The position numbers and the translations under genes are program-made. A model generated the notes under the pieces. It worked only from the letters and a program-made list of their open reading frames with translations, made no database searches and was not told the origin of the DNA. Below are positions 109-52,701 of a stretch of DNA of 64,000 nucleotides, one piece after another; positions within the stretch are counted from its first letter, which is position 1; each line of letters starts with the position of its first letter. The stretch lies in the NCBI GenBank assembly GCA_964564925.1, contig CAZMBY010000001.1, positions 37,929 through 101,928 on the forward strand, in the 5' to 3' direction. This DNA comes from an uncultured Methanosarcinales archaeon (lineage in GTDB: Archaea > Nanobdellota > Nanobdellia > Woesearchaeales > GW2011-AR4).

Positions 109-618
109 ATGCAAGAAAAAGAGGGGATTAAGCAGGCTGAAAAAAGAGTTTTGGATACATTAAACTATCTTAAAAAGCAGAAGTATACTCAAGAACAGAT
201 AAGTGAGATTGTTGGAAGAGTTCTAAGGATACAGCCAAAAGAAGAGGTCAAAGTGCCTATTTCTGTTTTCAAAAGTAACCATCTTGGCAGCTTGGAGACA
301 ATTGTAAAGTACCTTAGGGAAAACTTATTTCTTACCTTCAGGCAGATTGGCACCCTGACAAACAGAAATCAGGTGGCATTGGCTGTCACGTACAGAAATG
401 CAAAGAAAAAAGCGCACGCCAAATTTGCTGAAGAGGTGTCCCCTTATTCTATTCCTGTTTCGATTCTTCAGGACAGAAAGCTAAGCGTTCTCGAGAATAT
501 ATCTTCCTACTTAAAAGACACTTTTGGGCTTACTTATCATGCGGTTGCTGTGCTGCTGAACAGGGATGACAGAACAATCTGGACTGTTTACCAGAGGGCA
601 AAGAAAAAGAGAAAATGA
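109..618 (+). CDS. Small DNA-binding protein with two tandem HTH modules resembling sigma-70 region 4 (ECF-type)
   Basis: Internal duplication of a ~55-aa module: '...LGSLETIVKYLRENLFLTFRQIGTLTNRNQVALAVTYRNAKKK' and '...LSVLENISSYLKDTFGLTYHAVAVLLNRDDRTIWTVYQRAKKK'. These match the sigma70_r4 pattern (LxxLxxxxrxvfxLxxxxGlsxxEIAxxLgxsxgTVksrlxRArkkL). The stop overlaps the giant gene start by 4 nt (ATGA at 615-618). Confidence 0.45.
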   Translation: MQEKEGIKQAEKRVLDTLNYLKKQKYTQEQISEIVGRVLRIQPKEEVKVPISVFKSNHLGSLETIVKYLRENLFLTFRQIGTLTNRNQVALAVTYRNAKKKAHAKFAEEVSPYSIPVSILQDRKLSVLENISSYLKDTFGLTYHAVAVLLNRDDRTIWTVYQRAKKKRK

Positions 619-3600
619 ATAGAATACAAAATTTCGAAAAATACGGATATGTTTATGCAGCTGTGCTAGCTGTGATACTTCTTTCAGCAATAATACTCAT
701 TAACAAGCCCGCAACAACAGGATTTGCTGTTGCAAATGAATCTTCTGATGATAAGGCTAAAAGCAAGGATATTAACGAGAGTGTTGAGCCTGCTTCCAAG
801 AAAACAATTGAAATTCCAGCCATAAATGTGTCTGCAGTTGAAACTGGCAATAATGTAACAACAAATGAAACAAAAGATAAGTCAAAAGAGGAAAAACAGA
901 GTGAAAAAAAACCAGAAGACAAAACCATTGAAATAAAGCTTGATTACAAGAGCGGAACTCTGTATGACAGCGATGACGATGGTGTTGAAACAACAACGGG
1001 CATTGTGGACTTAAGCGTTGAAAACACAAAATTCGGCTGGGATGCAAAGGATGAGAACCTTTGCACGAGATGGGAAGTATACAGCATTGAAGATGCAGCT
1101 TCAACTATATTATGCTATGGAGGCGAAAAATGCTGCGAATTCGTCAATTTGCTGTCTTCGCGCCCAACTTGGAACGAGCCGTTTTATGCCAGCTACGGCT
1201 CTTATGGCGCAACCCTGCTCAACATTGTCAGTGCTCAAGTCTTATATGTCGACTACAGCCTGGATCCAAACGAGCCGTTTGCTGAGGTTTACAACAGCGA
1301 ATGGGAAAACTCAAGCGTACAGTTCTTTTCAGAGTACATCGACTTCAAGGACACTTGCATTGACACTTGCCTGCTAAGCGGCTTTAACGAAAGCTCATAT
1401 AAATTGATTTTTGAGATAAATAATTCTGTGCTGGTGCTTGACACATTGACTTATACAACAGTAGAAACCATAGACAAAGTCAGAGTCGATGTAGATGTTA
1501 AGGACAGCGAAGGAATTGCATCAGGCTCTTATAGTCTTTATAAGAATAATGATTTAGTCACAGGGGAATATGTAGAGCCTGATTATTACAATATTGAGAT
1601 TATCCCGAATGAAAAAATCATAGACAGATTAGTTGTCAGGCTCAATATATCAAAGCCATTGACAGCCAAAATAGGCCTTGATGATGTAACCAGGGATATT
1701 TCAATAGATTATGTTGACATAAAGAAGACCTTTGCTGCAAGCCTTGAGGATTTGCAGTTTGACGAGGCTGAGCTGGAAGCGACTGCAAGCGCAAATTCTT
1801 TGTATAGATGCAAGCAATGGGACTTTGAAAGGGAGCTGTGCTTTGGCTCATGGGAAAAAGTGATGGATTTGGCTGCTGGCCAGCAGTACAAGCTTTCATT
1901 GGCAAAGGAGGCTGCTGGATTTGTTGAGGGAAATGCAAACATAACAATATCAAATGCAACTGATTTAATTTTTGTTGCAAATATTCCCAACATAAGCATA
2001 GTCAAAAATGGCAATGCGACCATCAATTTGAGCCAATACTTCTCAAATATTGGCGATAAGACAACTTTCACTTATTATTTGCAAGACAACATGAGCATTC
2101 TGTTTGAAAATGACATTGCAACAATCATCCCCGGCAAGGATTTTGTTGGCAGAAGGATAACATTCATAATTGGAAACCAAAGCGACACAGTTGCTGTCTC
2201 AAACGTGTTCAGCATTAATCTTACAGAAGAAAATCCTGCCTTGAAGCGCGGTAAAAGAGGTCCTAACATATTCGAGGATGAAGATGTCCAATTTAGCCGA
2301 GATGGCATCATCTTTGAAACTCCACAAGGTGATTATTTAGAGACCAAGATTATTCCAGATTTGCCAACGCCTCATTCGCATGGTTATGAAATAAGCAGAA
2401 GAAAATTAGCGCAAAAATTTGCATTCAATGCCACAAATAACGGCATTGCCAATCAATTGAAAAATAAGGCTGTTAATGTAGCATATCAATTAAACTTTTT
2501 GCATGACATATCAGGAGAATATCTCTTTGACAAAATCAACCTTAAAGGCAACAGATTTTTCTTCAAGAAAGACTTCTACTGTAATGTGCAGACTGGCAGC
2601 AATCAGTATAATGTCAAAGGCAATATTTTAAATCAAAATTTGCTTGAAGGCGGAGAATCATTAGTCATAAATATTTCTTATTCATTGCCAGCAGACATTC
2701 AAAAAGATTCTGTGATTACATGCTACGACCCAGTCCAGCCCAACACAGATTATGTTGATGGCTCTGCAACTTTGATTGGGACTGGAAGCCCGGAAACAAC
2801 TCTTGCTTCTTTGGGTACTGACATTCCAGCAGGCACAAACGCTGTCTTAGTTTTTGCATACATGAATACAAGTAGTGCGTCAGACAGTGATACAACATTC
2901 ACACTGCGAAGAAATGGAAACCTGATATTAACAAGTGCTGGCGCATCCCAAATTGAGACTACCGCAGTAGCAGAGACAGAGCTATGGGCAGGAGTTTATC
3001 TCGATGAAAATGCTCCAGCCTCTCCATTATATGAATTGAATGCAACATCAACCCTTTCAAACGCAATAATAGGTGAGGCGAAGATCGCCGTGCTTAACGG
3101 AGTGACTGGATACTACAACAGGTCTTCCAGAACTCCTATCACAGTATCAACAACAGTTCCTACATCGCTTGCAATGGCAAAAACAAATTTACCTGCAGGA
3201 AACCATACAATAATTGCAATAGTCGAATATAATATGACAGGTGCGGCAGGAAGGAATATTGCTGCAAAGGGCCTTCAGTTGAGGAATGTTTCAGGGAACA
3301 CTTTCAGTGTGCTTGCACAGAATGAATATATCATAGAGTTATCCTCGTCTGGTGCTGCAGACAATTCCAGGGTTGCTGTGCTCACAGCCTATGATACAAA
3401 TGCTCCGGCAAATGCGCAATATAATCTGACCTCAGTGATAAGCGGCTCGTTAGTTGTGGGAACAGGCACAATACTGGTGCTGGATTCCAACAACATGTCG
3501 ATAGCATATTCCAACATTTCAAATAATTTAGGTATTACCGCAACTAATATAACAAGCTACACTACAGATTTTCCAGCTGACGGTGATTCAATCGTAATTG

Positions 3601-6600
3601 CAACGGCACAGGCAACATCTACTACATCAAACAAGTTTATACCGGCAGGCGGCCTGCAAATCAGGCAAAATAATGAATCGAGTGTGAACGGCACTTCAAG
3701 CGAATTTACTCTTATGGTTGATGTTGGCGTAGCTGGGAATTTTTTTGGACTTGTCAGAAAATATGGCAATATTTCAGCAAATCCTGATTACAGCCTGTTG
3801 AGCAACATATCAAGCACAGCACACGTAACCACAATGACAGGTAGATTGCTAGCCATAAGAGTGAAAAGCCCTACTGCCGATGTGACTTTCCCGATGGTCA
3901 ACACTTCTTTTAACATTTCAAGCCCGACAGCAGGCCAAGTGATAAACTTCACAGGCAATGCTACAGACGACATTGGATTGGTTGCAATGAACATAACCTA
4001 TAACCTATCGGGAATCATAACCTATCTTAATTTTTCATTGTCAGGCTTGCCAAAATTCCAGCAAGTGAGCAACGTTACCACACTTCCGGCAACAGCAGCA
4101 GTCCTTAATTTCACTTTGTATGCTACAGACATAGGGAATAATGTTAAGCAGAACAGCACTTTGATCAGTGTGACAACAGTAGACCAATTTCCATCATTAA
4201 AAATCAGCTTCAATCTTTCCTCCATACAGCAAGGGAATGTAATAAACTTTTCAGCCAATGCAACAGATGATGCTGGATTATTATTTATTAATTTGACAAA
4301 CAACCAGTCAGGGTCAGGGCAATTTATGAATTATTCAGTTTCTGGAATATCCTATAATGTTAGCAACACAACTTCTATAACTGCTGCCGCTGGAAATGTC
4401 ATCAACTTCACAGCTTATGCAACCGACTCAATAAACCAAGTCACTCAATTAAGCCAGTTGTTTACTGTTATTGAGAGCGCTGCACCTGTTGTCAACACTA
4501 CATTCAATATTTCATCTCCATTAATTAACAACGTGATTAACTTCACAGGAAACATAACAGATGAGAGTGGATTGCTGATGGCAAACATAACATGGAACAT
4601 AAGCGGGATAATCACTTATTCCAATTATACAATTAGTGGAACATCTGCACAAGTCAGCAATGCAACTCAATTAACATCATCTGGAGTATTCAATTTCACG
4701 ATGTTTGCTACAGACACAAGCAATAATGTCAAGCAGAATTCAACTTTGATAATAGTGCCATTTGGCACCTTCTACGTCAACATAAGCCTGCCATTAAATA
4801 ATTCGCAAGTTACAGTTAATACAACATTTTCCTTAATTGCCAATGTAACCTGTAAAAATGCAGATTGCGGCGTTGTTCAGGGGCTTGCAAGGTATAACGA
4901 TAGTGGAAGCAATATCAGCAACAAGAGCATTAGCACTGTAAAATTTGCAACTCCATTGTTTATTAATGGCTCTGGAAGCGGCATTAAGCAATACAATTTT
5001 GGCGGTGTCACCTATCCTGCAGCCATTACATCGAGTAATGCAACTTATGGGTATCATACTTCAACAAAACCACAATTTGTAAATTTAACATCAGAAACAG
5101 AATTTGGTGGTGGAGGGAACACTGCAAATAATTATACTAATATTTCAAGCTTGGATGAAGTTTATGCACTATCTACCGGAGGCTCTAGTAGATTTGTTGC
5201 ACATAAATTCATATTCAAAATTAATGAATCTGAAAGTGCGGTTTCAAAATTGACAATATTTTGGAATGGGACAGGAGGACGCTCAGGGGGCGATTTAGGC
5301 GGTCCTGATGTTAATATCAACTTATCAATTTGGGATAGCAATGCTTGGGAAGTTTTGGGAAATTGTACTAAACCTAATGTTAATCCTATTACAGATTCTG
5401 GTTGTGTGATTAACTCTACCATAATAACAAACATTGGAAATTATATCAATGAAACAGATAACAACGCAGTCTACATATTAGCTATATCATCATTCAGTGG
5501 ACAAGGTGGTCCTGGCGGTTATACCAGTGCTGTTAAAACCAACTACATAGAACTCAATGTTACTTCCACAGCACAAAACCCGCTCTCATGCGGCAATATG
5601 CTCCAAAACGACCAGTGCCAGTTGAACTGGACGATTAATGCTAGCGGTGATGTTGGCTCTCAATTAGTTGTTGATGTCAACTTCAGCTCTGACAATGCAA
5701 ATGTTGCTGCGAATGACACAGAGGATCATTTGATTATAATTGTCGGTGCAGCAGACACAACATTCCCAATAGTAAACACATCATTCAATATTTCATCTCC
5801 ATTAATTAACAATGTGATTAACTTTACTGGAAATATAACTGATGAGACTGGGTTGTTGATGGCAAACATAACATGGAACATAAGCGGGATAATCACTTAT
5901 TCAAACTACACAATCAGCGGAACTTCCGCTCAAGTAAGCAATGCAACTCAATTAACTTCATCCGGAGTATTCAATTTTACAATGTATGCTACTGATACTA
6001 ACAACAATGTAAAGCAGAATTCAACTTTGATAATAGTGCCGTTTGGTGGCTTACTTATCAACATAAGCCTGCCACTAAATAATTCGCAAGTAGTTGCTAA
6101 TACAACATTTTCCTTAATTGCTAATGTAACCTGCAAGAATGCAGATTGCGGCGTTGTTCAAGGAATTGCAAGGTACAACGATTCAGCAAGCAATGTTTCA
6201 AACAAGTCGATAAGCATAACATTTGGAGCAACTCCATTGTTTGTGAATGGCACAGGAGAGGTCATTAAACATTATGATTTTGGAGGAATCACTTATCCTT
6301 CTCCAGTTGCTTTAAGCAATGCAACATACGGCAATCATACTTCCACAAAGCCAGATTCCATAAATTTATCAGGGGAGTCTGAATTTGGAAGTGGTGGAAG
6401 CCTAAATATTAATTATTCAAATATCTCATCTCTTGATGATGTATTTGCTAAAACAAGGGACAACACTGCTAAGTTCGCAGCGCAAAAATTCACTTTCAAA
6501 ATCAATGAGTCCGAGGATGCAATATCCAGCTTAAAAATTCTTTGGAACGGTACAGGTGGTCGAGGAGCAGAAGGCGATTCACAAGGTGTGAATGTCAACG

Positions 6601-9600
6601 TTTCAATTTGGAATAGTAATGCTTGGGAGGCGATTGGAAACTGCACAAAACCGAGCGTAGACGCAAGTAGTGATACTGGCTGTGTCATAAATATATCCAT
6701 CACCTCAAATATTGCTAACTACATAAATGAAACGGACAATAATGCAGTTTATATATTGGCGTTATCAATGTTTCCTGGAAGCTTTGGAAGAGTGAGTGTG
6801 GTCAGGACCAACTATATAGAATTGAATGCAACAACTACAGCAGCAAATCCTCTTTCCTGCGGCAATATGCTCCAAAACGACCAGTGCCAGCTAAACTGGA
6901 CGATTAATGCAAGTGGGGATGTTGGCTCTCAGTTAGTTGTTGATGTCAACTTTAGCTCTGACAATGCAAATGTTGTTGCGAATGACACAGAAGATCATTT
7001 GATTACAATTGTAGGTGCAGCAGACACAACTCCACCAATCGTGAACACAACATTGAATGCAACAACAGGAGCAGATGGGTATCAATTCACTTCAAGGAAT
7101 ATAGATGTCTTGAACTTTACGGGAAATGTGACTGATGAGACAGCTTTGCTGTCTGCAAACTGGACAGTAAACTTCTCAAGCAACAAGCAGTTCATGAACT
7201 ACACTTTGTCTGGAACAAGTGCGCAGGCAAGCAACACAACGGATTTAAGGGGATTGGTTAATGGAAGTGTATTGAACTTTACATTATTTGCAACTGATAC
7301 TTCAAATAATGTAAAACAAAATTCTACTCTGCTGATCGTTACTGACGCTTTAGTGCCTGTTGTGAATACAACCTTAAATGCAACTCCAAGAATAAAAGAT
7401 GTCATAAACATAACAGCAAACATAACTGATGAAACAAGAATAATGACTGCTAACATAACAATCAACTTCACAACAGGGACTGTATACGTAAATTTCACTT
7501 CGACAAGCGCATCATCACAATTCAGCAACTCAAGCCAGATCCCAGACAACTGTGTTGGAGGCTGTGTGATAAACTACACAGTTTATGCCACAGACACGAG
7601 CAATAATGTTAAGCAAAACTCAACTGTTGTGACGGTTATAGACAATGTGTTCCCGATAGTAAATACTACATTCAATAAAACAAACCCTGCGGTTAATGAC
7701 ATAATCAACATCTCAGGAAACATAACGGATGAAACTGGCTTGCTTTCGGCGAACATCACATGGAACATATCAGGCATAATAACTTATTCAAACTATACTC
7801 TTTCCGGAACCTCGGCCCAATTATCCAATTCCACTGCCTTAGCCTGCACTGAGTCTTGTGTTATAAACTTTACAATGTATGCCACAGATGCATCTGCCAA
7901 TGTCAAGCAGAACAGCACATTGCTTATTATAAATGATTTAACTGCACCAGTTGCCAATACAACTTTTAACTCAACAATCCCAAGAAATATAGACATAATT
8001 AATTTCAGTGGCAATATAACTGACGGGATAGGATTGCTTTCTGCAAACTGGACAATAAATTATTCAAATAATAAGATTTACATGAACTATACTTTGTCGG
8101 GAACAACTGCGCAAGTGAGCAACACAACTGATTTAAGGGGATTGGTTAATGGAAGTGTATTAAACTTTACTTTATATGCAACAGACACTTCAAATAATGT
8201 CAAGCAGAATTCAACTCTGCTGATTGTTATTGATTCTTTAGCTCCTGTTGTAAATACGACATTCAATATTTCATCTCCATTCATTAACAACGTGATTAAC
8301 TTTACTGGAAACATAACAGATGAGAGTGGGTTGTTGATGGCAAACATAACTTGGAACATAAGCGGAATGATAACCTATTCTAATTACACTTTATCTGGGA
8401 CTAGCGCACAAGTAAGCAACGCGACAACTTTGCCTTCAACCCCTGCTGTAATTAACTTCACGATGTTTGCTACAGACACAAGCAATAATGTCAAGCAGAA
8501 CTCCACTTTGATTTCCGTAATTGATTTGATCCCAAGGATCAACGCTTCTTTGGATGATGCACTTCCATTCCAATTCTCAAGGGTAAACATGACTGCAAAT
8601 GTCAGCGATGAAACAGGATTGGCTTTCTGCCAGTTCATTGACAACCAAAGCCTCTCTAATGGGGCCAAGACTTACTTCAATACCTCTGTCACTGGAACAA
8701 GCGATCAATGCAGCCAAAACTATACGATAAGATTGGCTGCTGGAAGCGTGATTAACTTTACTGTTATTGTGAATGATACAAATAATAATATTAACGCTAG
8801 TGTTAATAGAAGTGATTCTGGTACTTTACATATTGGGCAGATTATAACTGTTAGATCTAATGCTATTAATAATTGTACCACACTTGATGCTCCAAATTCA
8901 GTTTTTAACTTAACGCAAGATGCAAATAGCGGGGAAACCTGCTTCTACATAGCTGCGAATAATGTAACTCTAGATTGCAAAGGTTTTGAGATTAATTATT
9001 CGCAAAGCGCTGTTGGGTATGGAATTAATATATCAAGCCAGAATTATTCTACTGTTAAAAGCTGCAATATTGTGCAGGCTGATTTATCTTCTGATACGGC
9101 AAATTCTTATGGGGTTTATGTATTTAAGAACTCGAGCAACAATACTTTCTACAATAATACAATAACAACTAGTGGGAGTAATGCTAATGGGGTGCATTTA
9201 ACTTCAACTGCTTATAATAATTCTGTTTATAGCAATACGATAGCAACTAGTGGTGCTGGGATTGGGGTGTATTTACTTTTAACTGCTTATGGCAATAATG
9301 TGCATAATAATAACATAACAATAACAACTAGTGATAGTAACGGGTTTGGGGTGTCTTTAAATTCAAATGCTTATAATAATTCTGTTTATGGCAATACGAT
9401 AATAACTAGCGGGAGTACTGGGTATGGGGTGTATTTACTATCAACTGCTTATAATAATTCTGTTTATAGCAATACGATAGCAACTAGTGGGGGTGTTGGG
9501 ATTGGGGTGTATTTAGACACAACTGCTTATGGTAATAATATTTATAGCAATAACATAACAACTACTGGGAGTAATGGGAATGGTGTGTGTTTAGACACAA

Positions 9601-12230
9601 CTGCTTATGGTAATAATGTATATGATAATAACATAACAACTAGCGGGAGTACTGGGTATGGGGTGTGTTTAGATACAACTGCTTATGGTAATAATATTTA
9701 TAGCAATAACATAACAACTAGCGGGAGTAACGGTTTTGGGGTGTATTTACTATCAACTGCTTATAATAATTCTGTTTATGGCAATACGATTGCAACTAGC
9801 GGGAGTACTGGGTATGGGGTGCGTTTAGCATCGACTACTTATGGTAATAATGTATATGATAATAACATAACAACTAGCGGGGGTAACGGTTTTGGGGTGT
9901 ATTTACAATCAACTGCTTATAATAATTCTGTTTATGGCAATACGATTGCAACTAGCGGGAGTACTGGGTATGGAGTGTATTTACTATCAACTGCTTATAA
10001 TAATTCTGTTTATAGCAATACTATCACAACATCCAATTTGTCCAGTCACGGTATTTATCTAAATAACAATGTTTTCAACAACACAATTTATGGCAACAAC
10101 ATTACAACAAAAAATACAAGCAGTTCTTATAGTATTTACTTGGAAAGGGGCGTAAACAACAATTCATTCTACAGGAATAGGATATCATCATTGGCAGCAG
10201 GAATTGTGATTAACGGAAGCACTCCGACAGATACTGAAGTGACAACATTCAATTCGTTCACAAACGATACAATAGTTCCATGCACAACAGGATGCGCTTC
10301 TAACTACCAAGATATTGTTCTGACAGCAAATGCAACCGATATAACATTCATTAATGCCAGCTTCAACAAGTCAAGAGTTGCATTTAGTCCTTTGGGATTA
10401 GCTGCGCCAAGAGAAAAAAACAACATGACGGTCCAATGGTTCCTTGATGTCAACGTAACAAATTCCTCAAACAATAATCCCATAGCAAATGCACAGGTTG
10501 TTATCAATGACACAAATGGCTTAAATATATTTAATGGCACGACAGATGCAACTGGAGGCATTCCCACACAGCTTGTCACAGAATTTACAATGAACGGCTC
10601 TGTCCCTTGGGGCAATAATGACAGCTGCAGGCAGGTATTAAACACTCTTATAACTGAAAACTTGACTTGCTTCACAACCTACAACATAAGCGTTAATTAT
10701 ACAGGTTATAATAATAACAACACAAAGGCTGATGTTAACAGCAGCAAGTTCTTGAATTTGAGCATGGCGATTATCGCAGACACAACATTCCCAATAGTCA
10801 ACACAACATTAAACGCGACAATTGCATCAGAAGGAACATCTCAGTTCACAGCAAGGAATATAGATGTGATTAATTTCACAGGCAACATCACAGATGAAAC
10901 TGGATTGTTGTCAGCAAACTGGACTGTAAATTTCTCAAACAATAAGCAGTTCATGAACTACACATTATCAGGCACTACAGCGCAAGTGAGCAACACAACT
11001 GATTTAAGGGGATTGGTAAATGGAAGCGTATTGAATTTCACTTTGTATGCAACTGACACTTCAAATAACGTAAAACAAAATTCAACTTTGCTTATCGTGA
11101 CAGACGCTTTAGTGCCTGTTGTTAACACAACTTTCAATATTTCATCTCCATTCATTAACAACGTGATTAACTTTACTGGAAACATAACTGATGAAAGTGG
11201 ATTGAAGTTTGTTAATGTGACTTACAATTTAAGTGGAGTAATAACATACGCAAACTACACTATTTCAGGAACAAGCATACAGATAAGCAATGTCACAACA
11301 TTGTGCAGCTCTGCTTGTGTATTAAACTTCACTATGTTTGCAACTGACACTTCGAGTAATGTCAAGCAGAACAGCACTTTGATCACAGTTACAAACAGAG
11401 CGCCAATAATCAAGCTCAACAACGTGACTGGTTTTGCTGTTGATCCTGTTGAAGCGGGAAATTCAATAATCTTGCTCTCATTCAATGTCACAGATTCTGA
11501 TGGAGCAGCAACAATCAATGCAAGCAAAGCGATTGTCAACCTGACTCTGGGAACAAATGATGGGCAGTTCAGGTTTAACATATCAAGGCCTGATAGCGAC
11601 TCAGAATTTGGCACATGCATCAATCACACAGAACCAGGTCCCGGCTCTGAAACTGCAAGAGTGGTAATAAACTGCACTGTTTTGTTAAGATACTATGAAA
11701 ATTCAAGCTCCAACTGGGTGATTAATATCAGTGTAAAGGATATATCAGGCTCGGCTGCAATAAATGACACTTTGAGATTTACTTATAATGTCTTGTCTGC
11801 GATTTCGTTGCCATACCAATCCATAAACTTCAGCACTGTAAACCTTGGGCAGCAGAATGTGAAGGCGTATCCGCATATCCTGATGAACAACACAGGCAAT
11901 GATGACTTCAACAGGATAAACATGAGCGCAGCTGCACTTGTCGGCACGACAACAGCATCTGAGAGTATTGGAGTCACTAACTTTGGCGTCAACTTGACAA
12001 ACAGCTCAACATCTGAAAACAAATACCTGGCATTCTCTGCTGATGGCACAGTTAATTTGAGAAATCCTCTTAATGGGAGCAACGCCTCTTTATATCACGG
12101 GCATACAAGCGCCTTCGCTCCAAACAATGACAAAGGGAACATAAGCGCTTTCATTTGGGTCAATGTGCCAAGCTCTGGATTGAGCGCGCAATTATACAAC
12201 GCGACCTGGAATATAACTGCTGTTTCTTGA
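615..12230 (+). CDS. Giant (3871 aa) secreted/cell-surface glycoprotein with N-terminal signal anchor, many Ig-like ~86-aa modules, lectin-like domains and an embedded right-handed beta-helix repeat domain
   Basis: Uninterrupted 11.6-kb ORF with an N-terminal hydrophobic segment (YVYAAVLAVILLSAIILI). Roughly 9 N-x-S/T sequons per 86-aa module, e.g. 'TTFNISSPLINNVINFTGNITDESGLLMANITWNISGIITYSNYTISGTSAQVSNATQL...FNFTMFATDTSNNVKQNSTLIIV' repeated more than 10 times. No C-terminal TM. Confidence 0.85.
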   Translation: MNRIQNFEKYGYVYAAVLAVILLSAIILINKPATTGFAVANESSDDKAKSKDINESVEPASKKTIEIPAINVSAVETGNNVTTNETKDKSKEEKQSEKKPEDKTIEIKLDYKSGTLYDSDDDGVETTTGIVDLSVENTKFGWDAKDENLCTRWEVYSIEDAASTILCYGGEKCCEFVNLLSSRPTWNEPFYASYGSYGATLLNIVSAQVLYVDYSLDPNEPFAEVYNSEWENSSVQFFSEYIDFKDTCIDTCLLSGFNESSYKLIFEINNSVLVLDTLTYTTVETIDKVRVDVDVKDSEGIASGSYSLYKNNDLVTGEYVEPDYYNIEIIPNEKIIDRLVVRLNISKPLTAKIGLDDVTRDISIDYVDIKKTFAASLEDLQFDEAELEATASANSLYRCKQWDFERELCFGSWEKVMDLAAGQQYKLSLAKEAAGFVEGNANITISNATDLIFVANIPNISIVKNGNATINLSQYFSNIGDKTTFTYYLQDNMSILFENDIATIIPGKDFVGRRITFIIGNQSDTVAVSNVFSINLTEENPALKRGKRGPNIFEDEDVQFSRDGIIFETPQGDYLETKIIPDLPTPHSHGYEISRRKLAQKFAFNATNNGIANQLKNKAVNVAYQLNFLHDISGEYLFDKINLKGNRFFFKKDFYCNVQTGSNQYNVKGNILNQNLLEGGESLVINISYSLPADIQKDSVITCYDPVQPNTDYVDGSATLIGTGSPETTLASLGTDIPAGTNAVLVFAYMNTSSASDSDTTFTLRRNGNLILTSAGASQIETTAVAETELWAGVYLDENAPASPLYELNATSTLSNAIIGEAKIAVLNGVTGYYNRSSRTPITVSTTVPTSLAMAKTNLPAGNHTIIAIVEYNMTGAAGRNIAAKGLQLRNVSGNTFSVLAQNEYIIELSSSGAADNSRVAVLTAYDTNAPANAQYNLTSVISGSLVVGTGTILVLDSNNMSIAYSNISNNLGITATNITSYTTDFPADGDSIVIATAQATSTTSNKFIPAGGLQIRQNNESSVNGTSSEFTLMVDVGVAGNFFGLVRKYGNISANPDYSLLSNISSTAHVTTMTGRLLAIRVKSPTADVTFPMVNTSFNISSPTAGQVINFTGNATDDIGLVAMNITYNLSGIITYLNFSLSGLPKFQQVSNVTTLPATAAVLNFTLYATDIGNNVKQNSTLISVTTVDQFPSLKISFNLSSIQQGNVINFSANATDDAGLLFINLTNNQSGSGQFMNYSVSGISYNVSNTTSITAAAGNVINFTAYATDSINQVTQLSQLFTVIESAAPVVNTTFNISSPLINNVINFTGNITDESGLLMANITWNISGIITYSNYTISGTSAQVSNATQLTSSGVFNFTMFATDTSNNVKQNSTLIIVPFGTFYVNISLPLNNSQVTVNTTFSLIANVTCKNADCGVVQGLARYNDSGSNISNKSISTVKFATPLFINGSGSGIKQYNFGGVTYPAAITSSNATYGYHTSTKPQFVNLTSETEFGGGGNTANNYTNISSLDEVYALSTGGSSRFVAHKFIFKINESESAVSKLTIFWNGTGGRSGGDLGGPDVNINLSIWDSNAWEVLGNCTKPNVNPITDSGCVINSTIITNIGNYINETDNNAVYILAISSFSGQGGPGGYTSAVKTNYIELNVTSTAQNPLSCGNMLQNDQCQLNWTINASGDVGSQLVVDVNFSSDNANVAANDTEDHLIIIVGAADTTFPIVNTSFNISSPLINNVINFTGNITDETGLLMANITWNISGIITYSNYTISGTSAQVSNATQLTSSGVFNFTMYATDTNNNVKQNSTLIIVPFGGLLINISLPLNNSQVVANTTFSLIANVTCKNADCGVVQGIARYNDSASNVSNKSISITFGATPLFVNGTGEVIKHYDFGGITYPSPVALSNATYGNHTSTKPDSINLSGESEFGSGGSLNINYSNISSLDDVFAKTRDNTAKFAAQKFTFKINESEDAISSLKILWNGTGGRGAEGDSQGVNVNVSIWNSNAWEAIGNCTKPSVDASSDTGCVINISITSNIANYINETDNNAVYILALSMFPGSFGRVSVVRTNYIELNATTTAANPLSCGNMLQNDQCQLNWTINASGDVGSQLVVDVNFSSDNANVVANDTEDHLITIVGAADTTPPIVNTTLNATTGADGYQFTSRNIDVLNFTGNVTDETALLSANWTVNFSSNKQFMNYTLSGTSAQASNTTDLRGLVNGSVLNFTLFATDTSNNVKQNSTLLIVTDALVPVVNTTLNATPRIKDVINITANITDETRIMTANITINFTTGTVYVNFTSTSASSQFSNSSQIPDNCVGGCVINYTVYATDTSNNVKQNSTVVTVIDNVFPIVNTTFNKTNPAVNDIINISGNITDETGLLSANITWNISGIITYSNYTLSGTSAQLSNSTALACTESCVINFTMYATDASANVKQNSTLLIINDLTAPVANTTFNSTIPRNIDIINFSGNITDGIGLLSANWTINYSNNKIYMNYTLSGTTAQVSNTTDLRGLVNGSVLNFTLYATDTSNNVKQNSTLLIVIDSLAPVVNTTFNISSPFINNVINFTGNITDESGLLMANITWNISGMITYSNYTLSGTSAQVSNATTLPSTPAVINFTMFATDTSNNVKQNSTLISVIDLIPRINASLDDALPFQFSRVNMTANVSDETGLAFCQFIDNQSLSNGAKTYFNTSVTGTSDQCSQNYTIRLAAGSVINFTVIVNDTNNNINASVNRSDSGTLHIGQIITVRSNAINNCTTLDAPNSVFNLTQDANSGETCFYIAANNVTLDCKGFEINYSQSAVGYGINISSQNYSTVKSCNIVQADLSSDTANSYGVYVFKNSSNNTFYNNTITTSGSNANGVHLTSTAYNNSVYSNTIATSGAGIGVYLLLTAYGNNVHNNNITITTSDSNGFGVSLNSNAYNNSVYGNTIITSGSTGYGVYLLSTAYNNSVYSNTIATSGGVGIGVYLDTTAYGNNIYSNNITTTGSNGNGVCLDTTAYGNNVYDNNITTSGSTGYGVCLDTTAYGNNIYSNNITTSGSNGFGVYLLSTAYNNSVYGNTIATSGSTGYGVRLASTTYGNNVYDNNITTSGGNGFGVYLQSTAYNNSVYGNTIATSGSTGYGVYLLSTAYNNSVYSNTITTSNLSSHGIYLNNNVFNNTIYGNNITTKNTSSSYSIYLERGVNNNSFYRNRISSLAAGIVINGSTPTDTEVTTFNSFTNDTIVPCTTGCASNYQDIVLTANATDITFINASFNKSRVAFSPLGLAAPREKNNMTVQWFLDVNVTNSSNNNPIANAQVVINDTNGLNIFNGTTDATGGIPTQLVTEFTMNGSVPWGNNDSCRQVLNTLITENLTCFTTYNISVNYTGYNNNNTKADVNSSKFLNLSMAIIADTTFPIVNTTLNATIASEGTSQFTARNIDVINFTGNITDETGLLSANWTVNFSNNKQFMNYTLSGTTAQVSNTTDLRGLVNGSVLNFTLYATDTSNNVKQNSTLLIVTDALVPVVNTTFNISSPFINNVINFTGNITDESGLKFVNVTYNLSGVITYANYTISGTSIQISNVTTLCSSACVLNFTMFATDTSSNVKQNSTLITVTNRAPIIKLNNVTGFAVDPVEAGNSIILLSFNVTDSDGAATINASKAIVNLTLGTNDGQFRFNISRPDSDSEFGTCINHTEPGPGSETARVVINCTVLLRYYENSSSNWVINISVKDISGSAAINDTLRFTYNVLSAISLPYQSINFSTVNLGQQNVKAYPHILMNNTGNDDFNRINMSAAALVGTTTASESIGVTNFGVNLTNSSTSENKYLAFSADGTVNLRNPLNGSNASLYHGHTSAFAPNNDKGNISAFIWVNVPSSGLSAQLYNATWNITAVS
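4480..7030 (+). repeat. Tandem intragenic duplication of a ~1.28-kb (~425-aa) segment within the giant gene (copy 1 ~4480-5756, copy 2 ~5757-7030)
   Basis: The protein segments 'FNISSPLINNVINFTGNITDE...CGNMLQNDQCQLNWTINASGDVGSQLVVDVNFSSDNANV..NDTEDHLI.IVGAADTT' occur twice back to back. They are ~80-85% identical at protein level and carry identical DNA stretches (e.g. 5571-5700 vs 6851-6980). Confidence 0.8.
9105..10200 (+). repeat. Array of ~15 near-identical 66-69-nt (22-23 aa) tandem repeats encoding parallel beta-helix (PbH1/pectate-lyase-like) rungs
   Basis: The protein repeats 'NNSVYGNTIATSGSTGYGVYLLSTAY' / 'GNNVYDNNITTSGSNGFGVYLxSTAY'. The DNA units at 9760-9830 and 9910-9980 are nearly identical. 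Confidence 0.8.
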
Positions 12231-14235: not shown

Positions 14236-15180
14236 ATGATTGTAAGGATAAAAAAGAGGAGCCTGGCATTATTAGTTATACTTGCTATTGTCAGTGTATC
14301 TATAGTGTATGCAGCTTCCACTTCTGTTGTAAAAAAATTTAAGGTTGATCTTGTCATTACAAACAGAAATCCGCAGATTAATGTTTCTAATGTGAGCGGT
14401 TTTTCTGTTGATCCTTCAGAGGGAGGAAATTCAATTGTTTTGATTTCATTCAATGTCACAGACGCAGATGGAGCAGGCAATATAAACGCAAGCACAGCCA
14501 TAGTCAATTTCACGCTTGGCTCTCCGAATGGGCAGCATTACGCCAATGTATCTGCTGTAGCAAGCTCTGAATTCGGAACGTGCATAAACCATAGCGAATC
14601 GAGCACAGTAGTTGTGGTAAATTGCACTGTTGTAGTCCCATATTTCGCTAATTCCAGCTCTATTTGGGTTGTGAATATAAGCATTAGAGATATATTTGGC
14701 GGCTCAGCCACAAATGACACACTAAGGTTTACATATAACATCCTCTCAGCGTTGTCATTGCCCTATTCATTCACCAACTTCAGCACTGTAAACCTTGGGC
14801 AGCAGAATGTGAGGGCGTATCCGCATATCCTGATGAACAACACAGGCAATGATGACTTCAACAGGATAAACATGAGCGCAGCTGCACTTGTCGGCACGAC
14901 AACAGCATCTGAGAGTATTGGAGTCACTAACTTTGGCGTCAACTTGACAAACAGCTCAACATCTGAAAACAAATACCTGGCATTCTCTGCTGATGGCACA
15001 GTTAATTTGAGAAATCCTCTTAATGGGAGCAACGCCTCTTTATATCACGGGCATACAAGCGCCTTCGCTCCAAACAATGACAAAGGGAACATAAGCGCTT
15101 TCATTTGGGTCAATGTGCCAAGCTCTGGATTGAGCGCGCAATTATACAACGCGACCTGGAATATAACTGCTGTGTCGTAA
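14236..15180 (+). CDS. Secreted 314-aa paralog of the giant protein's C-terminal ~290 aa, with its own signal peptide
   Basis: N-terminal signal 'LALLVILAIVSVSIVYAAS'. Residues 40-175 are ~55% identical to the giant protein region 'NRAPIIKLNNVTGFAVDPVEAGNSIILLSFNVTDSDGAATINAS...'. The last ~135 aa are identical to the giant protein C-terminus. Confidence 0.8.
   Translation: MIVRIKKRSLALLVILAIVSVSIVYAASTSVVKKFKVDLVITNRNPQINVSNVSGFSVDPSEGGNSIVLISFNVTDADGAGNINASTAIVNFTLGSPNGQHYANVSAVASSEFGTCINHSESSTVVVVNCTVVVPYFANSSSIWVVNISIRDIFGGSATNDTLRFTYNILSALSLPYSFTNFSTVNLGQQNVRAYPHILMNNTGNDDFNRINMSAAALVGTTTASESIGVTNFGVNLTNSSTSENKYLAFSADGTVNLRNPLNGSNASLYHGHTSAFAPNNDKGNISAFIWVNVPSSGLSAQLYNATWNITAVS
14777..15175 (+). 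repeat. ~400-bp segment ~99% identical to 11827..12225 (3' end of the giant gene)
   Basis: Direct comparison of the two stretches shows one substitution (gaaggcg vs gagggcg) plus differences in the last two codons. Upstream flanks have diverged. Confidence 0.9.
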
Positions 15181-15220: not shown

Positions 15221-15772
15221 ATGAAGCGTTTAATAGTTCTGGCAGCAGCTTTGATGATTGCGATTCCAATTGTAAATTCTCTTGGTGTAGTGTCTGATTA
15301 TTTGGAAGGAAACACTTTGGAGATAACAGAAGGCCAATCAAAGATTTTCAGCATAAGGCTCCAAAATCCAACTGAAAGCGAAATAGCTATTGTTTTGAAT
15401 TACGACAAGGCTTTTATGAAAGCTGTAGACTATAAAGAAGTTTATGTTTTGCCTGCCAAAACATCAGGATACAGGGTATTATTCAATGTAACAGCGCCAG
15501 GCAAGCCAGGCATGTACGCCATAAGCTATACTGTTGGCGAGGTAGAGCCAAGCGGCGGCGGAGGCTTGCCATTGCGCCTTAAGATAAGCAAAAATCTTAA
15601 TCTGAAGGTTGTTGAAGACCCAAACAAGCCAAAAGTCAGCCGCTCTAAGGATGACTTTATGGCAATATTGCTGATGATGGCAATGATTGCAGGCATTTTG
15701 ATAGTGTTTCTGTACAGAAAAAGCCGCAGAAGACATGCCAAAAGGTATACCAATAGAAAAGTAAATAAATGA
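15221..15772 (+). CDS. Small secreted protein with signal peptide and C-terminal TM anchor plus basic tail
   Basis: N-terminal 'LIVLAAALMIAIPIVNS', C-terminal 'ILLMMAMIAGILIVFLYRKSRRRHAKRY'. The ORF is clean, following a GGTGA-like RBS. Confidence 0.55.
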   Translation: MKRLIVLAAALMIAIPIVNSLGVVSDYLEGNTLEITEGQSKIFSIRLQNPTESEIAIVLNYDKAFMKAVDYKEVYVLPAKTSGYRVLFNVTAPGKPGMYAISYTVGEVEPSGGGGLPLRLKISKNLNLKVVEDPNKPKVSRSKDDFMAILLMMAMIAGILIVFLYRKSRRRHAKRYTNRKVNK

Positions 15773-15794: not shown

Positions 15795-16949
15795 ATGAGA
15801 AAGGCTTTGATATTATTATTTGTGGTTTTGAGCATATTTGTACTGCAAATTAAGCATGCGTACAGCCCATCAGTAGGCATAGGCTTGCAGATAAACTCAA
15901 CAGATAGCGGCTCGTCTTCCTCGACAAGCTCCAGCAGCTCAGGTGGTGGAGGAAGTTCTGGAGGAGCGGGAGGTGGGGGTGGAGGCGAGGTTCTTACACC
16001 AGTTGAGCCGGGATTTACCCTCAATAAGAATTCGCTTAAAGTGGTTTTAAGGCAGGGCGAACAAAAAGAGGATTCCTTTGAAATAAGGAATACCGGCAAC
16101 ACAATACTAGACATATCGACTGACCTTAAGAGCTTGAAGAAGTTTTTATTCTCTCCAACCCAAGACACTTTAAAGAATACATTAAATCCCGCTGAATCTG
16201 AGTCAGTAGACCTTGTCTTTGGCGCTGATGAGGAGATGAAGCCGGATGTTTACAGCGGCGAAATATCAGTAAAAAGCGGAGAATTGGAAAAGATAATCAA
16301 CACAATCATAGAGGTGGAGTCTGCCAAGCCGCTGTTTGATGTTGATGTGCAGGTATTGCCGGAATTCAAAAGCCTATATCCAGGAGACGAGATAACAATC
16401 CAGGTCTCTTTGTTTAATGTCAGGGGGTTTGGAAGGGTTGATGTGCTTATAGAATACTCTATAAGGGATTTTAAAGGCAATGTGATAGCTGCAGAGGAAG
16501 AAACTGTGGCTGTTGAAACCCAAGCCAAGTTTGTAAGGCAACTTTTAGTTCCAAGCGACCTGAAGCCAGGAACTTACATTTCCGCTGTTAAGGTCACTTT
16601 TGGGGATTCGGTGGGGACGAGCTCTGATTTGTTTGAAGTCAAAGCCAAAACCATAAAGCTGTATCCCACATTGCTGAAGAATTATAAGCCATATTTATTT
16701 GTTGGAATTGCATTTGCAGTCCTAGTGGCTTTTTTTCTTATAAGGTATGAATTCAATCCGAGAAAAAGGTATGTTCCTGTTACAAAAGAAGGTGCCAAAA
16801 AAGTGATTAGATCAGAGGCTAAGATGCAGAAACTGGGGAAGGAGCTTCGCGCTATAGAAGGCGCCTATAAATCAGGCTTCATTTCTAAGCAAACTTACTT
16901 AAAAGACAAGATTAGGGTGGAAAAAGAGCTGAAAAAGCTGGGGAGATAA
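15795..16949 (+). CDS. Surface protein with signal peptide, poly-Ser/poly-Gly linker, beta-rich ectodomain, C-terminal TM and short coiled/SHOCT-like cytoplasmic tail
   Basis: 'ALILLFVVLSIFVLQI' signal, then the 'DSGSSSSTSSSSSGGGGSSGGAGGGGGGE' linker. C-terminal TM 'YLFVGIAFAVLVAFFLI' is followed by '...GAYKSGFISKQTYLKDKIRVEKELKKLGR'. Confidence 0.6.
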   Translation: MRKALILLFVVLSIFVLQIKHAYSPSVGIGLQINSTDSGSSSSTSSSSSGGGGSSGGAGGGGGGEVLTPVEPGFTLNKNSLKVVLRQGEQKEDSFEIRNTGNTILDISTDLKSLKKFLFSPTQDTLKNTLNPAESESVDLVFGADEEMKPDVYSGEISVKSGELEKIINTIIEVESAKPLFDVDVQVLPEFKSLYPGDEITIQVSLFNVRGFGRVDVLIEYSIRDFKGNVIAAEEETVAVETQAKFVRQLLVPSDLKPGTYISAVKVTFGDSVGTSSDLFEVKAKTIKLYPTLLKNYKPYLFVGIAFAVLVAFFLIRYEFNPRKRYVPVTKEGAKKVIRSEAKMQKLGKELRAIEGAYKSGFISKQTYLKDKIRVEKELKKLGR

Positions 16950-26571: not shown

Positions 26572-26578
26572 AAAAGAG

Positions 26579-26965: not shown

Positions 26966-27042
26966 TATTCTATGCAAAAAAGAGTTATTTTCAAATGGAA
27001 GAGCAGCAGTTGGAAATTGTTTAGTACACAAAGAGGTGTTAT

Positions 27043-49311: not shown

Positions 49312-52300
49312 TTGCACAATAACCCGCTCTTGAATCTCGTTTTTGCCATCGACTCAGCTGCAATGTATGGGATAATGGCATTTTTCTATCTGGAACCTCG
49401 AAAAATGCTAAAACAATGTCCGGATTGGCTTCGCATTTTGATGGCAAAACTACTTTTTGTGCAAAGCCTTTCTAACAAAAGCTTTTTAATGATGCGCCAT
49501 TTCCCTTCCAAAGGGTGTATTTTGTTTATGGAGTCAAAAGAAGACGAAGAAATTTCTATAAGTGCTAAGAAATCAAAGATTTCTGGCATCTCCGAAAATT
49601 CAGACGAGGAATTTTCGATAGATTTTGGCAAGATAAAGAAGTTTTTCAAGGGCAAGGGAGAGAAGGAGCCTGAAGATAGCCCAAAAACCGAGAAAACCGA
49701 AGATGAAGAGATTGCAGTAGATTTCAGCAAAGTCAAGAATTTCTTTAAATCTGGCGAAAAGGAAAGAGGAAGCGAGGATATAAACGTAGACTGGTCAAAA
49801 TTTGCTGATTTCTTTAAAACATATGGCATCGTATTAATTGCCTTGATTCCAATAATACTTTCAATCTATGTCAGAATGCAGGCTGATACCCTGCCATTCG
49901 CTGATGATTGGGCATCAAATAGCGTGTTCAACAACATCAGAAACCAGATAAGGAATAGCATAGACCAGCAATACCCAAATTTGCCAAGTGCAAACAAGGA
50001 TGCTTTGGTTGAAACAGAGATGCAGAATTTTATCAATCAGAACAAGCAGCAGATTGACCAGCAGGTGAAAGGGACATCAGACTACGTCAAGTCATTCTTC
50101 CAGGACGAGAATGGCAATAATTACATGCCAGACATTGATCCTTATTATTGGGTCAGGTATGCTGACAATATTGTCGATCATGGTTATCCTGGCGATGTCT
50201 TGGTTGAAGGGAAATCTTATGACAACAGGCAAGTAGCTCCAAAAGGAAGGTTTGTAACTGGCGACATGTTTCATTCATACTTCTTGGCATATTTTTACAA
50301 GTTCTTGCATTTATTTTCGCCAAGCCTGACTCTGATTCGCTCATCATTTTATGCTCCTGTATTTTTGTCGGCTTTGTGTGTCTTGCTTGTTTTCCTAATA
50401 GCAAGGAAAATTGCCGGAAACACAGGCGCTCTCATGGCGGGGTTGATAATGGCAGTAAATTCCGCATTCTTAGGAAGAACTATGTTTGGGCATGCTGACA
50501 ATGATGGGTGGGTTATCTTCTTTCCGCTGATCGTCACCTGGCTGTTCATTCAGACTATTGACGCCACAAGCATAGCCAAGGTCATTATTTCTGCTGCTCT
50601 GGCAGGTTTCTTCACAGGCTTGTTCACTTTAGCATGGAGCGGCTGGTGGTTCATTTTTGATTTTCTCCTCATTACTGTAGCAGTGACATTCCTATACCTA
50701 GTGCTTACAAACCTTCTGGACATCAGGAAAAATCTTAGATTCTTATTCCAGAATACTGTTATCAGGGATATAATAATTTTTGGCATTGTTTATTTCATTG
50801 CAACTGCAATGTTCACCACTTTCTTTTCTGGATGGGGCCAGTTCAGCAACAGCTTTCTTGGCCCTTTAAGCTTTAAGTCAATCAAAGAGCCGGTGAGCAG
50901 CGGCTCATTGTGGCCAAATGTATTGACCACAGTTGCAGAATTGAATGAAGGCTCCTTCAATGGCATTGCCAATTCAGTTGGAGGGTACCTATTCTTCTAC
51001 ATAAGCTTAATCGGATTGCTTTTGGCAGTCTCAAGAACAGAGGGCCTGAGGAAGTTTGATTTTTATTACAACGTTGCTGGATTTATTTATTATGCTGCAT
51101 TCCTGCAGCTTGTGAAAGCAGAAACTATAAACTCAATATATACCATAATGGCAGGAGTCCTGCTTCCAGTTGCGGTAAGGATGATTATTCTGATATACCA
51201 CAAAGACAGATCCTATGATTTCAAACTTTCCCTGTTGCTTTCGCTGTGGATTGTATCAACTATTTTCGCGAGCATAAAAGGAATTAGATTCACATTGCTT
51301 CTTGCTCCTGCATTCAGCGTTGCGTTTGGTGTTGCGCTTGGGAAGCTGTATATGTTTAGCTCAAAATTATTGAACAAAGAGCTGAAAATTAACAAGATTG
51401 TCGGCAACTCTGTCCTTATTTTATTGATATTGTCTTTGGTTTATGTGAATCCCACAAAGGCTGCCATAGGCGCTTCAAGTTCTGATCCGCCAATTGTCAA
51501 TGACGCTTGGTACTCTGCTTTGACCGCAATAAAGGAGGATTCAAAGCCAGATGCAATAATAACATCGTGGTGGGATTTTGGACATCATTTCAAGTCAATA
51601 ACTGACAGGAGGGTCACATTTGACGGAACAACTCAAACCTATCCACCGGCTCACTGGGTTGGCAAGCTGTTGATGTCGGACAATGAAAACCAATCTCTTG
51701 GAATTCTGAGAATGATGGATTGCAGCAGCAATGATGCCTATGTTTTGCTGCAAAAATTAGATGGCAACGACACTCACTTATCTATTAAGATAATAAATGA
51801 AATTGTAGGGCTTGACAAAAAAAGTGCCGAGAAAAAATTAATGGGCTATAAATTTAGTGATGAAAAAATCAAGGAGCTTCTTTCATATACCCATTGCGAT
51901 CCTGCAGAAGGCTACTTCATTGCCTCAGATGACATGATTGGAAAAAGCGGTGTTTGGGGCCATTTCGGCAGCTGGAATTTTGAAAGAGCTGACATATGGC
52001 AGAATGCAAGGAACATGGCTGAAGAAGACGCTGTCCAATATATGGCAGCCAAGTTTAACTATAGCAGGCAAAATGCGCAAAACCTATACGTTGAAATGCA
52101 GGAGATATTGGGCATAGATGACGCAAACAAACTTAACAGGAAGGCAAATGAATGGGTTGCTCCATGGCCGGGGTATGCAGGCACAATAAACTGTGCAAGG
52201 AATGGAGATGGTATTTTTGAATGCCCTCAACTGAGCGTTGGCAAGGACAATTCCGGCAGGGATGTATATGCCTCATTTTTCATAAATATGACCGGCTATG

Positions 52301-52701
52301 ACGTCTTTGGCAAGGTTGGCGGCACTGAGATAAGGGCAAATCCAGTTGCGTTCACCACAGAGGATGGCATTTACAAAAAACAATTTGACGGGAATACATT
52401 CGGCCTTGGGTTTACAGTAATTCCGGCAGGTGAAGACAGCGTCTTGGTTGTGATGTCCAGCCCGCAGCTTGTAGGCTCAATGTTCACGAGAATGTTTTAC
52501 ATGCAGGGGCATGGGCTTAAGTATTTTAAATTATTTAATCATCCTTCAAGAGGCTTGACAGGAACTGACATTTATGTTTACAAGGTTGATTGGGATGGAA
52601 AGAATGCGACTATTGTTGAACCCTATGTCGATAATTTGAGAAAACAAACCGAAGCAACAGCCATCATTCCTTCGGCAGAGCCTGCAGCAAACAGCTCCTA
52701 G
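49312..52701 (+). CDS. aglB: AglB/STT3 oligosaccharyltransferase
   Basis: Catalytic 'WWDFGHH' (WWDYG motif) at ~51567-51590. It has about 13 N-terminal TM helices and a large C-terminal soluble domain. The ORF-track N-terminus (49312-49527) lacks features; the start is probably the Met at 49528 (MESKEDEE…). Confidence 0.85.
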   Translation: MHNNPLLNLVFAIDSAAMYGIMAFFYLEPRKMLKQCPDWLRILMAKLLFVQSLSNKSFLMMRHFPSKGCILFMESKEDEEISISAKKSKISGISENSDEEFSIDFGKIKKFFKGKGEKEPEDSPKTEKTEDEEIAVDFSKVKNFFKSGEKERGSEDINVDWSKFADFFKTYGIVLIALIPIILSIYVRMQADTLPFADDWASNSVFNNIRNQIRNSIDQQYPNLPSANKDALVETEMQNFINQNKQQIDQQVKGTSDYVKSFFQDENGNNYMPDIDPYYWVRYADNIVDHGYPGDVLVEGKSYDNRQVAPKGRFVTGDMFHSYFLAYFYKFLHLFSPSLTLIRSSFYAPVFLSALCVLLVFLIARKIAGNTGALMAGLIMAVNSAFLGRTMFGHADNDGWVIFFPLIVTWLFIQTIDATSIAKVIISAALAGFFTGLFTLAWSGWWFIFDFLLITVAVTFLYLVLTNLLDIRKNLRFLFQNTVIRDIIIFGIVYFIATAMFTTFFSGWGQFSNSFLGPLSFKSIKEPVSSGSLWPNVLTTVAELNEGSFNGIANSVGGYLFFYISLIGLLLAVSRTEGLRKFDFYYNVAGFIYYAAFLQLVKAETINSIYTIMAGVLLPVAVRMIILIYHKDRSYDFKLSLLLSLWIVSTIFASIKGIRFTLLLAPAFSVAFGVALGKLYMFSSKLLNKELKINKIVGNSVLILLILSLVYVNPTKAAIGASSSDPPIVNDAWYSALTAIKEDSKPDAIITSWWDFGHHFKSITDRRVTFDGTTQTYPPAHWVGKLLMSDNENQSLGILRMMDCSSNDAYVLLQKLDGNDTHLSIKIINEIVGLDKKSAEKKLMGYKFSDEKIKELLSYTHCDPAEGYFIASDDMIGKSGVWGHFGSWNFERADIWQNARNMAEEDAVQYMAAKFNYSRQNAQNLYVEMQEILGIDDANKLNRKANEWVAPWPGYAGTINCARNGDGIFECPQLSVGKDNSGRDVYASFFINMTGYDVFGKVGGTEIRANPVAFTTEDGIYKKQFDGNTFGLGFTVIPAGEDSVLVVMSSPQLVGSMFTRMFYMQGHGLKYFKLFNHPSRGLTGTDIYVYKVDWDGKNATIVEPYVDNLRKQTEATAIIPSAEPAANSS

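Follow-up and report, generated by a model that had tools for sequence, protein, structure and literature searches.

The giant gene and its repeat array

We analysed 64,000 nucleotides (nt) of contig CAZMBY010000001.1 (assembly GCA_964564925.1, positions 37,929 to 101,928 of the forward strand), a stretch hereafter called the window, from an archaeon deposited as an uncultured member of the Methanosarcinales and placed by GTDB in the Woesearchaeales. The subject is a tandem-repeat array at window positions 9105-10200, which had been read beforehand, from the letters alone, as a parallel beta-helix of the pectate-lyase-like type within a giant adhesin (hereafter the original prediction). The array indeed lies inside a long open reading frame (ORF), and the interval translates to amino acids (aa) 2831-3195 of the product, in agreement with the earlier residue estimate of ~2830-3200. 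The giant gene contains the following features, for which AlphaFold2 (AF2) confidence is given as the predicted local distance difference test (pLDDT) and self-built hidden Markov models (HMMs) were used for the repeat modules.

615..12230, + strand: giant ORF encoding a sequon-rich cell-surface protein of 3,871 aa (ORF list and translation)
645..704, + strand: N-terminal hydrophobic segment (about aa 11-30), a putative signal anchor or signal peptide (Kyte-Doolittle mean up to 2.59)
7035..8807, + strand: six tandem ~90-aa modules (aa 2141-2731), immediately upstream of the beta-helix (self-built HMM)
8862..10388, + strand: complete right-handed parallel beta-helix domain (about aa 2750-3258) with a Cys-containing N-terminal cap, ~18 rungs and a C-terminal cap (Pfam, AF2, Foldseek)
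9144..10082, + strand: regular rung array (aa 2844-3156) of 26-aa, 78-nt units (Tandem Repeats Finder period, 26-aa anchors, unit HMM)
9381..10004, + strand: core of the eight most similar units (pairwise matrix)
10419..10598, + strand: small beta-sandwich 3' of the helix (about aa 3269-3328; AF2 strands at model residues 525-584), kept in orthologues
10791..11384, + strand: two more ~90-aa modules (aa 3393-3590), downstream of the helix (module HMM, 124 and 132 bits)
11397..12227, + strand: C-terminal tip of 277 aa, two tandem Ig-like beta-sandwiches (AF2 pLDDT 89.7)

Tandem Repeats Finder (TRF) delimited an array at 9156-10030 with a period of 78 nt, 11.2 copies and 75% matches (score 804), and additionally returned a super-period of 234 nt, with scores of 804-991 overall. 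When anchored on the motif G-[VI]-x-[LV], the units were spaced exactly 26 residues apart, and their rung consensus reads N-x-I-T-T-S-G-x-x-G-x-G-V-x-L-x-S-T-A-Y-N-N-S-V-Y-x. The period of 22-23 aa (66-69 nt) given previously must accordingly be revised to 26 aa (78 nt); the very string quoted there as an example is 26 residues long. An HMM built from eight units recovered 11 strong copies (20-52 bits) and two weak or degenerate ones within aa 2846-3165. The description of the DNA repeats as near-identical was too strong, since the eight core units share a mean pairwise DNA identity of 81% (range 72-95%) and the longest exact repeat, at 9752 and 9908, measures 66 nt. Within the core, we observed a duplicate of two units (156 nt; 9693-9848 versus 9849-10004) at 90% identity. 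The repetition is far beyond chance, as indicated by the TRF scores, the 66-nt exact repeat and the Pfam E-value of the segment (1e-15, see below).

The 313-aa array is nearly devoid of charge, with 6 Asp, 0 Glu, 0 Lys, 1 Arg and 3 His, and is composed of 18% Asn, 15% Thr, 13% Gly, 13% Ser and 10.5% Tyr. It contains 13 NxS/T sequons, about one per rung. The same enrichment extends over the whole giant protein, in which we counted 265 sequons against 107 +/- 8 in shuffled sequences (~20 standard deviations, ~2.5-fold), and the protein is probably heavily N-glycosylated. Strongly hydrophobic 19-aa windows start at aa 9-18 only, and the Kyte-Doolittle profile at this window size revealed no C-terminal hydrophobic segment; the N-terminal segment would therefore be the one that anchors the protein and determines its topology.

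The beta-helix occupies the C-terminal (distal) quarter of a protein made largely of other repeat modules. Besides the eight ~90-aa modules that flank the helix, further copies were located at aa 1093-1379 and 1718-1806, giving 12 in total with scores of 93-140 bits against the self-built HMM. These modules matched no Pfam family and are presumed to be Ig-like. Likewise, aa ~31-1092, 1380-1717 and 1807-2140 (roughly 1,700 residues) matched no Pfam family above threshold, and neither the Pfam nor the NCBIfam scan yielded an enzyme family anywhere in the giant protein. A sub-threshold Pfam match to bMG3 at aa 3258-3315 overlaps the small beta-sandwich. We also observed an internal duplication of ~1,281 nt in the giant gene (window 4471-7058; 4471.. 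versus 5752.., 83-87% identity), which comprises one ~90-aa module and a Cys-containing block of ~330 aa.

Fold of the rung domain and its conserved residues

The earlier assignment to the right-handed beta-helices was borne out by profile searches, structure prediction and structural comparison. Against Pfam, the isolated segment scored 57.9 bits for NosD (PF05048; cut-off 23.6) and 45 bits for Beta_helix (PF13229; cut-off 25.9), thus passing both gathering thresholds, by which it qualifies in sequence as a right-handed parallel beta-helix repeat domain. When the whole protein was scanned with Pfam and NCBIfam, the beta-helix was not reported; Pfam matched the isolated segment only (E = 1e-15), and NCBIfam gave no match to the isolated segment. 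Domain annotation of compositionally biased giants can silently fail.

AF2, the structure-prediction check proposed at the outset, was run on aa 2745-3345 with an alignment of 39 homologues drawn from a search of 5.8 billion proteins. The resulting model (m497d85c97e7b; pLDDT 89.5, predicted template modelling score 0.87) is a beta-helix with three strands per rung, in which a strict E3-E4-E7 strand pattern recurs every 26 residues across ~15 regular rungs to form a stacked solenoid, accompanied by irregular N-terminal rungs, a C-terminal cap and the small beta-sandwich. The original count of about 15 units is roughly in accordance with these regular rungs, whereas the unit HMM supports fewer copies, as given above. 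The full domain extends beyond 9105-10200, and on the predicted model this interval is the regular central part of a domain of the PbH1, NosD or Beta_helix type in the pectate-lyase-like superfamily. The rungs would be stacked through an Asn ladder, Gly turns and an Ile/Val/Leu core. A beta-helix rises by 0.48 nm per rung; with this standard geometry, the ~18 rungs would form a stiff rod of roughly 9 nm.

Foldseek searches against the PDB returned a probability of 1.00 for the HK620 tailspike, AlgE4, PL6 alginate lyases and AlgG, at template modelling (TM) scores of 0.2-0.4 that are low and denote the fold class rather than any closer kinship. Against viral models, right-handed beta-helix proteins were likewise matched at a probability of 1.00 and TM scores reached 0.54, with a phage exopolysaccharide (EPS) depolymerase and proteins named 'right handed beta helix' among the matches. 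A phmmer search of the segment against PDB sequences produced noise only, and a profile of four orthologues gave weak matches, the best to Vag8 (7akv, E = 0.0014) and one to a 'parallel beta-helix repeat protein'.

We examined the segment for signs of the carbohydrate-active function that had been suggested for it. None of the lyase or hydrolase families of Pfam was listed for the segment at E <= 10, so that membership of PL1, PL3, PL6, PL9 or GH28 was not supported; the sole other entry at this level was tRNA_NucTransf2 (E 0.07-0.31), well below its cut-off. In an alignment of 40 relatives, the columns at least 70% conserved within the rungs were N, I, T, G and V/I only, corresponding to the Asn ladder, the turns and the core, and no acidic or basic column within the rungs was conserved to 50% or more. 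The expected row of conserved catalytic Asp, Arg or Lys on one face was therefore not found; the only conserved charged columns, D2787, K2815 and D3233, all lie outside the array. The AF2 model shows uniform rungs of 26 residues, and loop insertions that might line a cleft are absent from them.

Three consecutive rungs (aa 2949-3026, window 9459-9692) carry an Asp at unit position 20 (D2968, D2994 and D3020), and two of the three also carry a Cys at unit position 18 (C2992 and C3018), all stacked on one face. The orthologues have F, Q or E at these sites, and the patch is not conserved.

Variation among relatives, the C-terminal tip and the neighbouring genes

Five orthologous domains were compared, including three from genomes (L001-L003) and one from a metagenome (L006). 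The N-terminal caps and C-terminal parts were well conserved, and the arrays differed by insertions and deletions of whole units: the distance from the landmark DC[KH]GFEINYSQS to N[KR]SR[VI] is 464 aa here and 433, 366, 362 and 305 aa among the five orthologues. The flanks of the array are ~60-80% identical to those of the orthologues. Each core unit is 83-95% identical to a sister unit and 60-82% identical to the best orthologous unit. Because sister units are closer to one another than to any orthologous unit, the core was expanded or homogenised in this lineage, after its split from the nearest sampled relatives. Units of 78 nt are gained or lost in frame, singly or in multiples (for example, 156 nt), through duplication or deletion, and the reading frame is kept since the changes come in multiples of 78 nt.

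The proposal that the copy number is unstable stood in part. Whole rungs distinguish the orthologues from one another, and the core units are lineage-specific duplicates, so that the copy number does change over evolutionary time; these data do not show instability within a population, which is a separate matter. Variation between sister units was concentrated at ~9 of the 26 positions, namely unit positions 1, 4, 6, 8, 13, 15, 18, 20 and 25, and their dN/dS ranged from 0.3 to 2.6, near 1, in comparisons of 78-156 nt that are too short for a claim of selection.

Two of the orthologous loci differ in arrangement. The ORF of L001 (8297-12304) has two beta-helix regions, with unit matches at aa 84-246 and 665-967. 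In L006 (reverse strand), the tip domain comes straight after the helix and sandwich, and the two ~90-aa modules that lie between them here are missing.

Relatives of the beta-helix are numerous. A HMMER search, run exhaustively on 1.84 billion cluster representatives (50% identity), returned 1,517 relatives at E <= 1e-3, of which 189 were at E <= 1e-30. Many of the relatives are giant proteins that measure 3,000-7,600 aa and contain more than one beta-helix stretch (the largest being 7,646 aa). Homologues were annotated as Nanoarchaeota, Woesearchaeota and Aenigmarchaeota, with the nearest genomic loci in groundwater Woesearchaeota metagenome-assembled genomes. Beta-helix modules of this sort are already common in DPANN archaea, and the finding is in itself ordinary.

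The following features outside the giant gene bear on its tip and its probable glycosylation.

14236..15180, + strand: stand-alone tip paralogue of 314 aa with its own N-terminal hydrophobic leader, sharing a 360-nt identical block with the giant gene
49312..52701, + strand: STT3/AglB oligosaccharyltransferase of 1,129 aa (Pfam STT3, E = 1.8e-35)
52702-53370: GT2 glycosyltransferase, directly after STT3/AglB (Glycos_transf_2, E = 1.5e-21)

The C-terminal tip gave Foldseek matches to Fab/TCR, to integrin and to the two-domain pilus tip adhesins FimH and CfaE, all at low TM scores (0.2-0.36). Its homologues form a large family of stand-alone proteins of ~300-330 aa (about 315), whose named relatives are mostly Woesearchaeota and which are without any Pfam domain. 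One of these is encoded just downstream, and the 3' ends of the giant gene and of this ORF share a block of 360 nt at 100% identity (11864-12223 and 14814-15173), while the homologous sequence immediately upstream of the block is only 55-78% identical. The sharp boundary of this identity suggests a recent gene conversion of the C-terminal tip domain. Alternatively, the identity could be an assembly issue, because the repeat exceeds the typical read length. Downstream of the stand-alone ORF lie two small ORFs with membrane anchors (15221-15772 and 15795-16949).

The STT3/AglB enzyme of the window would N-glycosylate the sequons of the giant protein, and its presence next to a GT2 enzyme fits the ~2.5-fold sequon excess. 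A type IV pilus-like locus at window 26161-37517 contains small ORFs whose N-termini are hydrophobic and pilin-like (26161.. and 26579..), two T2SSF membrane proteins, a T2SSE ATPase (33862-35541) and a 1,161-aa ORF without a Pfam match; such loci have been linked to DPANN-host interaction in the literature. The window also encodes a geranylgeranyl-reductase-like FAD protein and an adenosylhomocysteinase-like ORF. On the opposite strand, 54627-63560 holds a cluster of four or five ORFs, including PD40/WD40-like beta-propellers (359-1,146 aa) and one protein with a bacterial Ig domain (Big_7), which have the appearance of additional secreted or surface-exposed proteins. The 64-kb window yielded no tRNA or Rfam feature. 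In this cellular archaeal context, with AglB, the reductase-like and adenosylhomocysteinase-like proteins and the pilus locus, an origin of the domain as a viral tailspike was rejected.

Function of the helix and comparison with known systems

DPANN archaea live in attachment to other cells, and few of the molecules that mediate the contact are known. With moderate confidence, we favour a reading in which the beta-helix is a non-catalytic rung module of a glycosylated, N-terminally anchored giant, predicted to serve as a rigid spacer and/or as a lectin-like contact surface. The module is regarded as non-catalytic because its rungs are uniform, almost uncharged, rich in Tyr, Thr, Ser and Asn, and carry one sequon each. 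On the cell surface, the helix would present the two-domain C-terminal tip to the glycosylated envelope of another cell; here we infer that the sequons are in fact glycosylated, that the module serves in adhesion or spacing, and who the partner is. Several observations weigh against this reading. The structural matches to solved proteins identify the fold class and nothing closer. A local site for a metal or ligand, peculiar to this protein or its lineage, could be formed by the stacked Asp and Cys residues of aa 2949-3026. Among the N-terminal, non-repeat rungs, the motif Q-A-D-L-x-x-D (aa 2821-2827) is invariant in the four closest orthologues. Repeat alignments can slip register, and a lineage-specific catalytic constellation could have been missed for that reason. 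Finally, the solvent-facing residues and the absence of a groove were deduced from strand alternation only.

Some acidic residues conserved among close orthologues in the N-terminal rungs would suit an active polysaccharide lyase or hydrolase of the pectate lyase, GH28 or tailspike type that remodels the envelope polysaccharide of a host, as had been suggested originally. Carbohydrate-active enzymes dominate this fold class, the top Foldseek matches comprise the HK620 endo-N-acetylglucosaminidase tailspike, alginate epimerases, PL6 lyases and the phage EPS depolymerase, and the authors of the Nanobdella study speculate that similar proteins degrade host glycans (10.1101/2023.10.27.564410). By contrast, the lack of any polysaccharide lyase or glycoside hydrolase family at E <= 10, an array with a single Arg and neither Glu nor Lys, the missing conservation of acidic or basic rung columns across the 40 relatives and the loop-free uniformity of the rungs all argue against catalysis, and a sequon in every rung would leave the surface covered by glycans. 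Moreover, similarity of fold does not imply activity, given that PfbA of S. pneumoniae, a solved adhesin with a lyase-like beta-helix, has no detectable lyase activity (PMC3718772). We consider an enzymatic role quite improbable. A purely architectural element, that is, a stalk or envelope component that sets distance or stiffness without contacting a ligand, would account for the idealised, uniform rungs, for the heavy predicted glycosylation and for a rung number that varies (305-464 aa between the landmarks) while the caps are conserved. Against it, the variation at ~9 of 26 positions, with a dN/dS close to 1 in very small samples, could reflect a diversifying, exposed contact face, and the Tyr content of the array recalls the aromatic ladders typical of sugar-binding surfaces; we judge this alternative unlikely.

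Two further explanations can largely be set aside. A functional NosD is encoded together with nosZ, nosF, nosY and nosL and is a stand-alone periplasmic protein of about 400-450 aa. The best Pfam match of the segment is PF05048, 'NosD', and one might take the domain for a genuine accessory factor in the maturation of the copper centre of nitrous-oxide reductase; however, the Pfam model matches generic PbH1 rungs, none of nosZ, nosF, nosY and nosL was present among the ~30 ORFs scanned in the 64-kb window, and the domain forms part of a 3,871-aa protein in which repeat modules predominate and whose homologues are DPANN surface giants. A true NosD function was thus rejected for want of both a nos context and a free-standing domain, and is effectively refuted by architecture and context. 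An assembly artefact, with collapsed or inflated repeats, comes to mind for a metagenome-derived contig with units 72-95% identical. Nevertheless, the longest exact repeat of 66 nt is below the typical read length, the frame runs through 3,871 codons without interruption, the array is modelled by AF2 as one unbroken helix, and five independent orthologous contigs have the same kind of array between conserved flanks. An artefact in the array or its copy number is very unlikely in our view, and since exact repeats are at most 66 nt long, a short-read assembly error in the rung array is unlikely as well.

The array might act as a fast-evolving, length-tunable contact surface, in which in-frame gain and loss of 78-nt units together with substitutions at the ~9 exposed positions of each rung tune the reach and the glycan specificity of a fibre by which the Woesearchaeon would attach to its host. 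We offer this proposal tentatively and hold it to be rather improbable; if it is true, rung number and sequence should track host range. With its domain order, modelled rod, nearby glycosylation enzyme and between-lineage change of rungs, the giant protein is a well-resolved candidate for an attachment fibre. The present case also calls for caution, in that a 'pectate-lyase-like' fold in DPANN surface proteins should not be turned into an enzyme annotation without catalytic residues or activity data.

Among known systems, the closest by description are the Nanobdella aerobiophila surface proteins, which combine a pectin-lyase-like fold with Ig-like folds and 36-52 N-glycosylation sites (10.1101/2023.10.27.564410). 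The giant protein shows the attributes of such DPANN pectin-lyase-like surface glycoproteins, namely a hydrophobic N-terminus, 265 sequons, two modelled Ig-like sandwiches, 12 more modules presumed to be Ig-like, and a beta-helix. It is likened to MJ1_0451, MJ1_0701 and MJ1_0776 as an extracellular DPANN protein with beta-helix, Ig-like folds and dozens of sequons, and a role in host interaction has been proposed for the MJ1 proteins (10.1101/2023.10.27.564410). It differs in being three to four times longer (3,871 aa versus 908-1,320 aa) and in having an unusually regular, recently expanded rung array. For pectin-lyase domains of a Nanohaloarchaeum, binding of host sugars was proposed (10.1101/2023.02.24.529834).

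Beyond the DPANN archaea, three-strand rungs, an Asn ladder and the passing of both gathering scores ally the domain with the PbH1/CASH-type repeats of PF05048 and PF13229. It differs in having no nos operon context among the scanned ORFs and in consisting of 26-aa, nearly uncharged rungs that form one module of a multi-domain giant. PfbA and the autotransporter passenger Vag8 (7akv) resemble it in using a right-handed beta-helix as a surface rod or binding module without detectable catalysis, although both are bacterial and are anchored by sortase or an outer-membrane barrel; in PfbA there is a cleft, basic and lined by loops, of which we found no evidence in the archaeal helix. The best structural matches were phage tailspikes, such as HK620 TSP and the Klebsiella phage EPS depolymerase, which are elongated right-handed beta-helices that recognise surface glycans. 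In contrast to the archaeal helix, to which they show 11-16% identity and TM scores of 0.3-0.54, the tailspikes are trimeric and unglycosylated, with irregular rungs and a loop-formed groove that holds Asp/Glu catalysts.

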